From a plasmid: a stretch of DNA of 64,000 nucleotides. Of the stretch, positions 48,001 to 54,000 are shown piece by piece. The stretch lies in the NCBI RefSeq assembly GCF_057098645.1, contig NZ_JBXSPU010000002.1. One strand, written 5' to 3'. The position numbers were made by a program. Position 1 is the first letter of the stretch; each line of letters begins with the position of its first letter.

Positions 48001-51000
48001 CCTCCTGTATCTGATGTTTTCAGCCCCCATCATCTTTTGAGTTTCGGGACCCGCCGCAACGACATGAAGCGCGGTTTGCGAAACGGCGTTGCGCCTTACA
48101 TCCCGGCGGCCTTTTGCCGGGATGCCAGGAGCGCAGGCCACGGCGCGACTGAGGCGGCGCGACCGGAACGGTCGCTGCAAGCCCGGGGTTTCGCGTCAGG
48201 GATGGAAGCCCGCCAGGGCGGAGACAGCTTCGCTGGCTCCGTTCACGACAGCCCGCCCCGCCAGGGGGACGCCCGGAAAAGGCATAAGCAGGAGAACAAC
48301 AAAACAGACAATAATCAGGGCAGCAGTAATCAGAGTCAGAGCAGGAGGAAAAAGAGAATAATCAAAGGGAAGGTGATGTGATTTCTGACAGGTCATAAAC
48401 AGAGAAGGCGGGGGAAAAGAACGGGCGCCGCAGGCGCACGTTCATCCCCGTTCCCGGAGGGAAACGGCCTTCCTGGCAGTCTGGTTGTTCATGCCCGTAC
48501 AATGCCAGCAAGGAGAAAGGGGCCACCGGCGAACCAGCAGCCCCTTTATAAAGGCGCTTCAGTGCAGTCAGACCAGCACCAGCCCTGAAAAGGCGGGCCT
48601 GCGCCCGCCTCCAGGTTGCTACTTACCGGATTCGTAAGCCATGAAAGCCGCCACCTCCCTGTGTCCGTCTCTGTAACGAATCTCGCACAGCGATTTTCGT
48701 GTCAGATAAGTGAATATCAACAGTGTGAGACACACGATCAACACACACCAGACAAGGGAACTTCGTGGTAGTTTCATGGCCTTCTTCTCCTTGCGCAAAG
48801 CGCGGTAAGAGGCTATCCTGATGTGGGCTAGACATAGGGATGCCTCGTGGTGGTTAATGAAAATTAACTTACTACGGGGCTATCTTCTTTCTGCCACACA
48901 ACACGGTAACAAACCACCTTCACGTCATGAGGCAGAAAGCCTCAAGCGCCGGGCACATCATAGCCCATATACCTGCACGCTGACCACACTCACTTTTCCT
49001 GAAAATAACCCGCTCATTCAGGCTGTTTACGGGTAATCTGTGTGATTGTTGCCGCATCACGCCGCCTCCCGGAGTTTGTTCGGCACCATCCACCGCTCCA
49101 TCTCACGGACAGCGTGACCGGCCTCTCTTGCTGCAAGACTGGCTTCCGCAATAACCTGCCAGAACGGCATATCCTGCCACTGCCAGCGTTCCATTCCGGC
49201 CAGTGACGGAAAACGCTCACCCCACTGCCAGAACAGGGTTTCCAGGTCATGCTCTGCCACCCGGTCACTCCAGCGTGCATACCAGCTTCCGACTGTTTCC
49301 GGCGAATGGAATGCCAGTTCGATTTCAGCCTGAGCGACCAGCGCCTGGTACGCACGGGCTTTCTGCTCTGCCTCCCTCGCCTGCTGGCGGCTGTACTTCT
49401 GCATGACCAGCGCGGATTTATGGCGACTGCGTTCCCTGACACGAAACCGCACCGACGGGAACAAGCGTTCTGCTGCATCGCCTGGAAGGGGAAGGAGGCA
49501 GACCTCGCCCTGTGTTTCAATCAGCACATCGATGGCATACAGCCACTGAAGACGGTTGCCGTGCAGTTCTTCTGCGGTCAGGGACGGCATGAAAAATCGC
49601 AGGTCAGACAGCGATATCCTGCGGCTTCCGTTCAGACAGCGGAAAAACGCCCCCGCATACGGATATTCCGCCAGCGTGTTTCCCTGATGGCGGCGTTTTT
49701 CCGTCTCCGCCACCGCCCGCCATGCGGCCTGTTGCTCTGTGCTGAGGGGAACCAGTGCCCGTGAACGTGCGCTCATACCTGACCACCTTCCGCCATCAGG
49801 ATATGGATGATGTCACTGACACTGTATCCCTGTTCATCCAGTGACGCCGCCAGTGCCAGTGAATGGCTGACGGCTTCCGGTGCAAACCGCCGCTGCACCT
49901 GAACCACCGCAAACGGCTCACCACCGGCATTCACCAGAACCAGCACCCAGACCTGAGAGACGTCACCCGGTGAACATAACGCCAGGTGAAAACGTTCGTG
50001 AGCTGGCGTGAAACGGACCTGGACGGGGAAAAAGCCCCCGAACTCACTGCCATACTCGCCGTTCATCGTCCAGTTGTCCGGCGCATCCAGCTCCCGCATC
50101 ACGGCATGTGTCAGCTCACGGCGTTCATCACTTCCGGCAGCCCGGATATCTTCATATTCCTGTGCGCTCATGGTCTGTAATACATTCAGGGTCAGTTCAG
50201 TTTTCATCACGGTATCTCCCTTGCTGCCGCCCCGTCTCCGGCAGGGCGGCGTGATAAATGGTTTATGACTGGCGGTCAGGCGGCTTCTGCCTGGTCGTCA
50301 CGGTACTCCGTGGTTTCCGTCTCTGCCTGTGGACGTGGTGTACACATCCAGCCAGGCACCCAGCGGTTGTCTTTCATGTAGAACTCTGCATGTTCAGCGG
50401 CATCGCCTTTCTTCATCTTCTCCGCGTCCCGTGCGGCACCGGACAGTCCGGCATCATTCAGGGCATCGATAATCTGCGGCTTTTTCAGGTGTCCGAAGAA
50501 GTTTGCTTTTGTCGGCTGCCACCAGTCACGCATGTGAAAGCCGATGGCGCTCTCCAGCGAGTCAAGCGGACTGCGTGACGTGTGACCACACTCGCGGGTC
50601 TGAACGCCGTGGATGCTGCACGCGGTGCAGAAACTGAGCAGGGATAACAGCACGTCCTGGCTGAGTGACAGGAACGTCGTCATGTCCCGTGCCCATCCCT
50701 CCGGTGACAGGGCAGCAAGACGGGATTTTTCTGCCATCATCGCCATGAATGCGGCACCGTCCTTCCCCGACGGCGCATCGCTGGTCAGAGAATAATGTTT
50801 ACATTCCAGACTGATTTGTGCTGGTTTACTGTACGCTCCGCTGCCAAACACATTCAGGCAGAGCGTCCATGCCAGCAGTGCCAGAGATTTGTCCGGCTGC
50901 TGCATCAGTGCTGCCTGGACTGCCAGCGTGCGCTCTGAGGACATTTTCGTCAGCAACGGCAGGCTGATTTCCTCCACTGACGCTTTCTCCTGCACCTGTT

Positions 51001-54000
51001 CCGTGCGGTCAGCGTCGTCAGCCGCGTCATCCTCGCTGCGCAACTGCACACCACGCTGGATACACACATTACCGTAACGCCAGGACACCACCACGCCACT
51101 TCCGGCACGCATCTCCGGCGTCCACGCCCTGACCTTCGCCATGCAGCGCATCAGCTTCATTTCTGCTTCCAGCAGGTCAGATTCCTCACACTGGTTTTCC
51201 AGCGCGTCGTAACGTGCCATCAGTTCGTTCAGACGTTCTTCTTCCGCCTCCGTCAGCACCGCTTCCGGCTCCGGCAGACAGCGGTATGTTCCGGCATCCT
51301 CACGGCACTCACCGACAGGCTCCATGCGTCCGGCGCACCATCCCCAGCCTTCGGCTTCCCGAAGGGACTCTGCAACAGCCTGGAGTTTTTCCAGCAGGGC
51401 GGCATCGAGCGCCACGCGGTCGACATAACCGTCCCCGTCATCGCTGAACAAATCGGTGCGCAGTTCGTCTGGCGAGAAGGCATCAGCCCCCACGAAGCGG
51501 AATTTACTGTTCCCCGCCACCGCCACTTCACTTTCCGTAATCAGATTGCGGATAACCCGCACATCCGGTTTTCCGCCCCATCCCGACTGACAGGCAGCTT
51601 CAAACACCTGCACCTGACGCGCGGTGTCGTTCTCCAGCGCCAGCGCCTGACAGTGTTCGGTGGTGATGCGGTCTTCTGCCAGCGCATCGAGGATGACAGG
51701 CGCAAGGTCTGCCAGTTTCAGCATTCGCTGGACATGGCGGGGTGAATAGCCCAGCAAATCACCGATTTGTGCAGGTGTTTTGCCTTCCTGCGCCATTGCA
51801 CGGAATCCGGCAATCTGTTCAGCGGGGTGCATATCCCGACGATGACCGTTTTCAGTCATTGATGCCGCCGTCGCCAGCTCCTGCGGAATAATTTTTACGC
51901 GGACAGGCCAGTCAGCCGGAATGATGCCACACTCTGCCAGCATGTTGAGTGCTGCCAGCCGGCGACCACCTGCGGCGACACCGTAACGGTCACCAGGCAG
52001 GGTATGCACGACCAGATTCTGCAGCAGGCCAACGCCCTTAATGGACTCAGCCAGTTCGCTGACGGACTCCGCAGAATACGGCACCGTGCGCACATTCAGC
52101 GGTGATTTAATCAGCGAGGCCAGCGGCACGCTAACTTCCTCCGTCTGCGCCAGCAGGGAAGACAGGACAGTATCCTGCGTTTTTGCAGGTTTACAGCTGG
52201 ATTTATGTCCCGTTTTTGCCTTAGACTCTGTAACTGACATGATTATTCCCCTTACGGTTTAGTTAATGTCTGCCGGACGCGTTCCCGTCCGGCACCTCTC
52301 TTACTTAAGAATGCCGAAATCCCTGATGACATGGTTCATCCAGTACCCGGCACCGTCCTCAAAATTCCAGGTACGCCAGACAAGTGCACCGTTATTGCGG
52401 ACAACCAGGCGAAAATGTTCCCCGTGGTCATCCTCGATAAAGACGTTCCGGTACTGTGCGGCAACAGCTTCCGCCTGTTTGCGGGTAAAAGGACCGTCAG
52501 GCAGCCCCTGAAGTATTCTGAAATATTCGCTCATCCTCATCTCTCCGGTGATGCCCCGCACTGGACGGGGCGGTTGTCACTGTCAGTCGTTCAGAACGGA
52601 ATGTCGTCATCGAAGTCATACGCGGGTTCAGACGGCTGCTGAGGCTCGGGCTGCGCGGCCTTACGTCCACGGCCTTTCGTTTTCGCGCCTCCTTTTTTCG
52701 GTTCCGGCTGTGATTCCGGCTGAGGCTGACCGCTGAACTGTTGCGCCTCTTCCGGCTGAGTCTGAGTACCTGCGGCACGTCCCAGCATCTGCATGGTGCC
52801 CGTGGTCTTAACAAGAATTTCGGTGACGTAACGGGTGATACCGTTATCCTCCCAGCTACGGGTGCGAAGCTGACCTTCGATGTAGACCTGCGCGCCCTTG
52901 CGCAGATACTCACCAGCCACTTCCGCGAACTTGCCGAACAGCACCACGCGATGCCATTCTGTCTGCTCCCGCATCTCCCCCGTCTGTTTGTCACGCCAGC
53001 TTTCTGACGTGGCCACCTGCAGGTTTGCCACTGCGCCCCCGTTGGGGATGTAACGGACTTCCGGATCTTTTCCCAGGCGTCCTACGAGAATGACCTTGTT
53101 AATGCCACGAACTGCCATGATGTGTCTCCTTCTGTTGATGTTTTCAGCCCCCATAATCTTTTGAGTTTCGGGAGCCGCGGTTTTGACGTTTTGCGGGGAT
53201 CTGCCTTTTGTTCCCTCCGGTATTCACCATCACCTTTTTGAGAACCTTCGCCGCAAGGGGCATCACTGCCACGGCCGGAAACGACTGTCCGGGGGCAGAC
53301 CGCAAAAGTTTTTGCCTGCTTTTGGGCAAAAAGTTTTGCGGGATGTACATTTCACCCTGGACTGGCGGAGACGTCTTTGCCCCCGGCGACAGGGGCTTAA
53401 ACAGGTGAATGGCACCGGACACAACAACGGGCAGGGACCCGCCGCAACGACGGAGAGCGCGTGCGCGAAACGGCGTTGCCCCTTACATCCCGGCGGCCTT
53501 TTGCCGGAATGCCAGGAGCGCAGGCCACGGCGCGACAGAGGCGGTGCGACCGGAACGGTCGCTGCAAGCCAGGGTTTCGCGTCAGGGATGGAAGCCCGCC
53601 AGGGCGGAGACAGCTTCGCTGGCTCCGTTCACGACAGCCCGCCCCGCCAGGGGGACGCCCGGAAAAGCCATAAACAGGAGAGGAACGGAAAGAAGAGGAA
53701 GAGGAAAAAGAAGAAGAACAATAACAAGCACGGTAACCATAGAAAAATAACATCAGAAAAAAACATTCCGGACACATCACAAACAGGAAGGGTAACGGGC
53801 GACGCGTCAGCATGGCCCGCTTCCCTTCCGGCAGGCGTCAGCCTGCCAGGGGTTTTCGCGCGGGCTGACAGGCGGCCTCCACCGCCTGCCCTGTATCACC
53901 TGTTTCTGCTGCCCTGAAGGATATAGTGACCACCGAGGAAAACCGCCTGCTGATTCGCCACAAAATCGCAGATTTCATCAACAATCTGCGCGGTGGTGAG

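Follow-up and report, generated by a model that had tools for sequence, protein, structure and literature searches.

The leading region of an F-like plasmid (NCBI RefSeq assembly GCF_057098645.1, contig NZ_JBXSPU010000002.1), examined here as a stretch of 64,000 nucleotides (nt) that we call the window, carries two repeated modules, copy A upstream of a ygeA-like open reading frame (ORF) and, 5.39 kb away, copy B upstream of ssb, which are the known Frpo1 and Frpo2 loci, respectively, of F-like plasmids. We conclude that both are very probably loci of class-1 single-stranded DNA (ssDNA) promoters, copy B retaining the promoter hairpin and copy A being a promoter-less remnant produced by a 264-bp deletion. 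What the analysis shows is the homology, how X folds and covaries, which strand and orientation are involved, which way the deletion went, and how frequent it is in plasmid populations; promoter activity and its switch-off are inferred from the literature on F and ColIb-P9. A first-pass annotation, made from the sequence alone, had taken the repeat shared by both copies for the promoter and the segment peculiar to copy B for an insertion; these roles are inverted, the "insertion" being the promoter hairpin and the shared repeat not.

Read from the gene outward, the ancestral module consists of a leader, a hairpin segment (X), and a flank (Y). The leader (48012-48054 in copy A, 53136-53178 in copy B) is 43 nt long and identical at 41 of 43 positions, and Y (48046-48300 and 53434-53686) is about 255 nt long with 94-96% identity between the copies and a BLAST E value of 8e-107 within the window; the first-pass annotation had correctly located both, as a shared leader of about 40 bp and as two copies of about 250 bp with over 90% identity, and had rightly noted that each copy precedes a minus-strand gene (the ygeA-like ORF for copy A, ssb for copy B). 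Leader and Y each occur twice in the window, X once. The extra segment of copy B comprises 264 nt; the 9-nt direct repeats at its edges, GGGAGCCGC and GGGACCCGC, which differ by one base, allow it to be placed at 53170-53433 or equivalently at 53179-53442, and we define X as the 255 nt between these repeats (53179-53433). Described at first pass as some 240 bp of GC-rich sequence, the segment is indeed present, but it is longer than that, and the guanine-plus-cytosine (GC) content of X, 55.7%, lies below the 69% of Y (window mean, 47.5%).

By sequence and predicted structure, copy B is the class-1 ssDNA promoter Frpo2 (ssp1b). Specifically, i) the F ssiD element (D90178, 351 nt; among the known Frpo/ssi elements in Supplementary Table 2 of Samuel et al. 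2024) aligns from position 1 to position 351 with window positions 53148-53485 at 92.4% identity, whereas in copy A the match to ssiD is confined to the leader and its final 53 nt and the approximately 265 hairpin-forming nt between them are absent, so that ssiD corresponds to the leader, all of X, and the first 52 or so nt of Y; ii) copy B is colinear with both F loci; iii) X folds as + strand ssDNA into a single long imperfect hairpin of -67 kcal/mol (z = -4.86), with 0 of 200 shuffled sequences as stable, and copy A folds into short local hairpins only (z = -2.2 with the leader, -1.97 without it); iv) 10 of the 70 pairs of the consensus hairpin are compensatory among eight homologues (the window, F loci 1 and 2, two other modules from plasmids of incompatibility group F (IncF), a Serratia sequence, and two metagenome sequences from the table of Samuel et al.); and v) X adjoins Y1, the proximal part of Y, in the ColIb-P9, Serratia, and metagenome homologues as well. 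Copy B therefore combines the ssiD/Frpo homology, the long stem-loop on the transferred strand (T-strand), and the leading-region, T-strand-template setting of the class-1 family; copy A has neither the homology nor the long hairpin. Alignment to F Frpo and folding of the + strand, both proposed at first pass, thus bore out the assignment for copy B and failed to do so for copy A, and the dyad-rich composition ascribed to the repeats is found in X but not in Y, which folds no better than its shuffled versions and forms short local hairpins (z = -0.43 in copy B, -1.97 in copy A). The shared repeat does not qualify as the promoter element: its fold is not significant, and F ssiD covers only its first 52 or so nt.

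Both strands of X fold about equally well, and it is the nic site rather than the fold that shows which strand is active. The F-type oriT nic-site sequence GTGGGGTGTGGTGCTTT is matched exactly once in the window, on the + strand, and from what is known of F oriT we take the nick to lie within it at about 44.62 kb. Transfer from F oriT moves the nicked strand in the 5′ to 3′ direction, with the leading region in front. Because the F nic site lies on the + strand, the + strand is the T-strand, with its 5′ end at the nic site and running toward higher coordinates, and it therefore templates minus-strand genes. Together with the ssiD homology, the nic site upholds the first-pass placement of the repeats in an F-like leading region, as members of the Frpo/ssi family with one copy upstream of ssb and the + strand as the one to fold.

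Since both F loci carry leader, X, and Y, the difference between the two copies is a deletion in copy A rather than an insertion in copy B as first supposed, and the supposed insertion is the Frpo/ssiD hairpin itself. The 264 bp are missing from copy A precisely between the 9-nt direct repeats, leaving a single unit in the Y-side version as the deletion scar. In PLSDB, 200-nt composite queries (at the ygeA locus, with the same gene start and leader) matched 1,592 records with X and 64 without at the ygeA locus, and at least 4,186 with X and 15 without at the ssb locus, so that X-containing alleles outnumber X-less ones by about 25:1 and 280:1, respectively, and the X-less share is roughly tenfold higher at the ygeA locus (about 4% versus about 0.4%). 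A 100-nt query spanning the X-less junction found 189 PLSDB records, 179 of them typed conjugative, and the junction (GAGTTTC joined to GGGACCCGCC) is the same base for base in Escherichia coli, Shigella, and Klebsiella plasmids whose surroundings otherwise differ. One E. coli-type relative, pRHB14-C07_2 (CP057827.1), matches a 200-nt query laid across the copy A junction at 100%. The simplest reading is that X-less alleles arise by recurrent deletion, through slippage or recombination between the 9-nt repeats, or spread by recombination. Copy A, leader fused directly to Y, appears to be a promoter-less remnant and not an Frpo; a consensus scan found no sigma-70-like site in it on either strand. 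Because it lacks both the long hairpin and such a site, the ygeA-like gene probably has no dedicated early (ssDNA) promoter.

We envisage copy B as acting in the following way. During conjugation the + strand, from the nick at about 44.62 kb onward, would be led into the recipient by its 5′ end; X, while single-stranded, would fold into an imperfect hairpin of about 125 bp, the stem of which imitates a double-stranded sigma-70 promoter; the RNA polymerase of the host would start at X and read the T-strand toward lower coordinates, from the apical part to the base of the hairpin, through the 5′ arm and leader, and into ssb, yfjA, the ParB-like gene, psiB, and psiA, a geometry that would make the 3′ arm the non-template strand; and synthesis of the complementary strand, which the X transcript could also prime, would abolish the hairpin and switch the promoter off. 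Masai & Arai 1997 are reported to describe a single-stranded stem that presents a duplex promoter to sigma-70 RNA polymerase, and RNA polymerase-dependent transcription and priming from ssDNA, but not from double-stranded DNA, have been shown for F and ColIb-P9 (PMC9849209 among the sources). In F, Frpo1 and Frpo2 are 92% identical and about 5 kb apart, Frpo1 lying upstream of ygeA/ygeB, Frpo2 upstream of ssb and yfjA as well as yfjB, psiB, and psiA (Couturier et al. 2023, PMC9849209, from which we also take ssb operon membership); deleting either one abolished early expression of its downstream genes (ygeA; ssb/yfjA), and deletion of Frpo1 cut transfer from about 92% to about 25% while deletion of Frpo2 had no measurable effect on transfer.

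The position of the promoter boxes within X can be narrowed by a published construct. The Frpo-acrIIA4 construct of Samuel et al. 2024 (PMC11541004), in which the X arms and leader are present and Y is missing, conferred anti-CRISPR protection that depended on the T-strand and on position; it starts inside the 3′ arm, at the complement of ...GGCGACAGGGAC. Because it works without Y and without the base of the 3′ arm, neither is essential, and these limits point to the apical region conserved between F and ColIb-P9 as the likely seat of the boxes. The fold, read together with conservation across the F, ColIb-P9, Serratia, and Salmonella homologues, suggests two candidate hexamer placements, both on the 3′ (non-template) arm: (a) TGGGCA (53323-53328) and TACATT (53346-53351), separated by 17 nt and with the putative -10 in a predicted internal loop, and (b) TTGCGG (53336-53341) and TGGACT (53358-53363), separated by 16 nt and preceded by an A-tract, where the Serratia homologue has TTGCGA-17-TGGACA. 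Two further placements were rejected. A -35/-10 pair near the base of the 3′ arm (TTGCCC...TAAACA) is ruled out because the working construct ends just before the -10 candidate, and TTGACG of the 5′ arm is ruled out as a -35 because every -10-like hexamer is 32-33 nt away, the predicted fold leaves TTGACG unpaired, and the same construct contains no arm to pair with it.

Several observations weigh against a working promoter in copy B and a disabled one in copy A. A sigma-70 consensus scan of X with a threshold of at least 9 matches in 12 found no site, and the two candidate placements score only 8/12 and 6/12, the 6/12 one being positionally conserved in 11 homologues. Copy B also lacks 10 nt (GGTTGTGGCT, at 53372/53373 on the + strand, in the 3′ arm of the hairpin) that are present in F and most relatives, where they pair with GCCACGGCC of the 5′ arm, so that the partner of a helix of about 9 bp has been lost. 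This variant occurs in only 35 PLSDB records, all from E. coli, and its minimum free energy of -67 kcal/mol compares with -80 for the closest full-length relative and equals that of F Frpo2; activity of the shortened hairpin would not be guaranteed. Finally, X-less alleles are found in plasmids typed conjugative with intact ygeA and DUF932 genes, and loss of X may thus cost little, or leader plus Y may keep some activity.

The best of the alternatives is compatible with a promoter hairpin in copy B: Y, or at least Y1, could itself be a functional single-strand element, perhaps one that primes or blocks complementary-strand synthesis, insulates operons from each other or terminates transcription between them, or acts as a weak promoter, and copy A could still be working. 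We regard this as unlikely. Y is better conserved than X between the two F loci (96% versus 84%), remains intact in the X-less alleles of conjugative plasmids, and contributes Y1 to every class-1 module examined, with sequence matching Y1 included in the approximately 328-nt ColIb-P9 elements; a Y1 hairpin following a conserved CCTTACA motif keeps its pairing through two compensatory pairs between the F-type and ColIb-type sequences; and conversion to duplex DNA is reportedly stalled by another hairpin of the leading region, ssp2 (bioRxiv 10.64898/2026.01.09.698686). However, Y as a whole has no significant fold, only 2 of 17 pairs covary in Y1, identity between the copies may reflect gene conversion rather than selection, and Y is dispensable for the promoter in the published construct. 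Beyond Y of copy B lies a purine-rich (GAA/GAG-type) tract on the T-strand (53687-53735) that differs in length from F by 18 nt; its counterpart past copy A (48300-48380) is likewise rich in purines but has an unrelated sequence.

A related proposal, which we think improbable, is that the Frpo-less allele has been selected rather than having decayed, either because leader and Y1 form an independent single-strand element (with any of the priming, roadblock, insulator, or weak-promoter roles named above) that is kept when the hairpin is lost, or because zygotic induction of ygeA/ygeB has been tuned down. A selected state would account for the persistence of one identical X-less junction in 189 plasmids from several genera, mostly conjugative and with intact ygeA and DUF932, although the engineered deletion of Frpo1 cut F transfer about four-fold.

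Two small minus-strand ORFs (66 and 52 amino acids) extend into Y2, the distal part of Y, where they encode an identical 27-residue tail; both end in ...FPGVPLAGRAVVNGASEAVSALAGFHP and have a hydrophobic N-terminal half. That Y2 might be conserved as the C-terminus of a small membrane protein seems decidedly improbable. The ORF is open at both window loci, both F loci, and in other plasmids, the frame at F locus 1 is kept through two compensating indels, and 216 protein clusters, some named "transporter" or "membrane protein", differ by in-frame indels; yet the matches carry no Pfam annotation, a scan against NCBIfam matched no family with the small ORFs or the ORFs called on X and Y, the ORF is missing from current PGAP annotation, the pyrimidine-rich coding strand stays open through composition alone, and the copy A ORF has a terminator-like hairpin just upstream. 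The DNA encoding the tail is almost invariant, and the 3-4 substitutions across 11 copies are all non-synonymous and none synonymous, which points to conservation at the level of DNA. Nothing on the small-ORF names ygdA and ygdB turned up in the literature searched. We lean toward DNA-level conservation of Y, or homogenisation between the repeats, rather than a real gene.

The first-pass reading, in which each copy has its ssDNA promoter in the shared repeat of about 250 bp and an unrelated insertion of about 240 bp has entered copy B between promoter and ssb, is very improbable. It has in its favor the 94-96% conservation of Y, the position of Y upstream of T-strand-templated genes at both loci, and the inclusion of the first 52 or so nt of Y in the deposited ssiD; but the fold of Y is no improvement on shuffled sequence, Y contains no sigma-70-like site, it is the "insertion" that ssiD/Frpo aligns with and that F has at both loci, a working Frpo construct lacks Y entirely, and X-containing alleles greatly outnumber X-less ones at both loci. 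Least credible of all is X as a mobile hairpin resembling a miniature inverted-repeat transposable element, inserted with a 9-bp target duplication and with copy A as the ancestral empty site: X is one large inverted repeat with near-identical 9-nt direct repeats at its edges, and empty and filled sites both occur in nature, but X occurs once in the window, keeps a fixed position and orientation between leader and Y1 at all loci examined (including ColIb-P9, Serratia, and metagenome sequences), is absent from only a small minority of sites at the two loci, is bounded by repeats that differ by one base of which copy A keeps the Y-side version as a deletion predicts, and has a demonstrated promoter role in F (PMC9849209).

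Table 1. Coordinates of the Frpo modules and neighboring features in the window.
Feature	Position	Strand	Basis or remarks
FinP and traJ 5′ untranslated region	43723-43834		Rfam scan; just below the nic site
TraM	43916-44299	-	ORF list
F-type oriT nic-site sequence GTGGGGTGTGGTGCTTT	44613-44629	+	Exact match, found once in the window
Lytic transglycosylase gene	44620-45222		
Insertion sequence element	46164-47477		Overlapping transposase ORFs 46201-46611 and 46569-47474; terminal inverted repeats 46164-46196 / 47445-47477
ygeA-like ORF, 67 amino acids	47793-47996	-	Downstream of copy A
Leader, copy A	48012-48045	+	33/34 identical to 53136-53169; templates a 5′ untranslated region common with the ssb locus; also at both F loci
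Deletion scar, single 9-nt unit GGGACCCGC	48046-48054	+	Alignment with copy B and both F loci
Segment Y, copy A	48046-48300	+	69% GC flank, distal to the gene relative to the hairpin; fused to the leader in this copy
Small ORF ending in Y2, 66 amino acids	48196-48396	-	
hok/sok	48619-48951		sok by Rfam scan
ssb	52591-53118	-	First gene of the putative Frpo2-driven operon; ORF list and annotation of near-identical relatives
Leader, copy B	53136-53169	+	Counterpart of the copy A leader; also at both F loci
Direct repeat 1, GGGAGCCGC	53170-53178	+	Flanks the hairpin; sequence read
Segment X, predicted Frpo2 (ssp1b, class-1) ssDNA promoter hairpin	53179-53433	+	ssiD homology, fold, covariation
Direct repeat 2, GGGACCCGC	53434-53442	+	Flanks the hairpin; sequence read
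Segment Y1, copy B	53434-53577	+	Shared by all class-1 modules examined
Segment Y2, copy B, version "a"	53578-53686	+	Unrelated version "b" in other plasmids: L004 (NZ_AP023301.1), L005 (NZ_CP085190.1); many search matches end at query position 478
Small ORF ending in Y2, 52 amino acids	53582-53740	-	

The features surrounding the two modules are listed in Table 1. TraM, FinP and the traJ untranslated region, hok/sok, psiA, psiB, and ssb follow the gene order of plasmid F and near-identical relatives, and ssb is followed on the minus strand, toward lower coordinates, by DUF905/yfjA, a ParB-like gene (yfjB, 654 amino acids), psiB, and psiA. The ygeA-like ORF downstream of copy A is chimeric, its N-terminal 42 or so residues matching a 98-residue "MSAFSFNT" allele that is common in other IncF plasmids and its C-terminal 24 residues matching F ygeA. 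The next gene, DUF932/ygeB, is split by an insertion sequence, presumably IS2-like, into 45727-46182 and 47399-47755, and is instead intact or frameshifted in close relatives. A terminator-like feature, a GC hairpin with a T run after it (48425-48437, minus strand), separates hok/sok from copy A and may end Frpo2/hok transcripts before they reach the ygeA locus.

An Rfam scan of 42-60 kb found FinP, the traJ untranslated region, sok, and ALIL only; no family covers Frpo, as one would expect of a DNA element. The ALIL match, to the frameshift pseudoknot of IS3-family elements (42619-42735 on the + strand, 120.9 bits), implies another insertion sequence in or next to the tra region. Between the transglycosylase and DUF932 genes, 45217-45405 matches the F single-strand initiation sequence ssiE (D90180) at 97.4%. 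A second long T-strand hairpin, unrelated to X, lies at 54963-55314 (-78.6 kcal/mol as ssDNA; arms 54991-55022 and 55197-55228), has 80.6% identity over 352 nt to Frpo'4, a candidate listed by Samuel et al. 2024, bears the hexamer TAAGAT in the 3′ arm, and resembles the class-2 ssDNA promoter (ssp2) of F and pESBL; it is just upstream of a 133-residue ORF (54553-54954) that matches, by position only, the "antirestriction protein" coding sequence of F.

Some IncF plasmids (L005, NZ_CP085190.1; L006, NZ_LC484363.1) have a third X-Y module with a different leader, upstream of genes for a 76-residue hypothetical protein and a DUF3560 protein, and search matches commonly fall at three places per record. 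In the records of L003 (NZ_CP157097.1), L004 (NZ_AP023301.1), and F (NC_002483.1), "hypothetical protein" ORFs are annotated on the Frpo hairpin and Y, a frameshifted "single-stranded DNA-binding protein" pseudogene is also annotated over the hairpin and Y among them, and none carries a promoter annotation on the equivalents of X or Y.

The closest known system is F itself, whose Frpo1 (ssiD, ssp1a) and Frpo2 (ssp1b) share with the window the same loci, spacing (about 5.4 kb), T-strand orientation, and leader-X-Y module; the window differs in that its Frpo1 hairpin has been deleted, leaving leader and Y, and in that its Frpo2 hairpin is closer to F Frpo1 (90.6%) than to F Frpo2 (78.1%) and lacks 10 nt of the 3′ arm. 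In ColIb-P9 (IncI1), the ssi1-3/Frpo1-3 elements and the IncI "R" repeats (Bates et al. 1999; PMC3817090) are likewise repeated modules of about 330-460 nt upstream of leading-region operons, and have in common with the window an apical core (TGTCCGGGGGC...GCAAAA..TTTTTGCC / GGCAAAAA..TTTTG...CCCTGGAC) and a Y1-like tail (CCTTACA...GGAGCGC..GGCGCGAC), but their basal hairpin and leader are unrelated in sequence, and there are three copies per plasmid rather than two. The ssp2 and ssp3 elements of F and pESBL (Wen et al. 2025, PMC12672017; bioRxiv 10.64898/2026.01.09.698686) follow the same principle of a long T-strand hairpin upstream of a leading-region operon, but have no sequence similarity to X or Y and precede klcA/ardB-type and methylase genes. 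The sso of rolling-circle plasmids and ssi signals such as F ssiE are also folded ssDNAs recognised by host enzymes to start RNA synthesis on a strand that is entering or being displaced, but are priming sites only, with no downstream gene expression, and are not related to X or Y in sequence.

Leading-region direct repeats that contain Frpo, as well as recombination between such repeats, have already been described; what is added here is a corrected anatomy and, as a new detail, a natural and apparently recurrent hairpin-loss allele. We wish to stress that the repeat structure alone picks the wrong piece, since the best-conserved segment, Y, is not the promoter and the inserted-looking segment, X, is, and that Frpo promoters go without annotation in RefSeq records while gene callers place spurious ORFs and pseudogenes on them. 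Frpo-type ssDNA promoters control the first plasmid genes to act in a new host, those for SOS inhibition, single-stranded DNA-binding protein, and anti-defence. That loss of the hairpin is commoner at the ygeA locus than at the ssb locus is the opposite of what the laboratory results with F would lead one to expect, and presents a small but testable puzzle in plasmid establishment.

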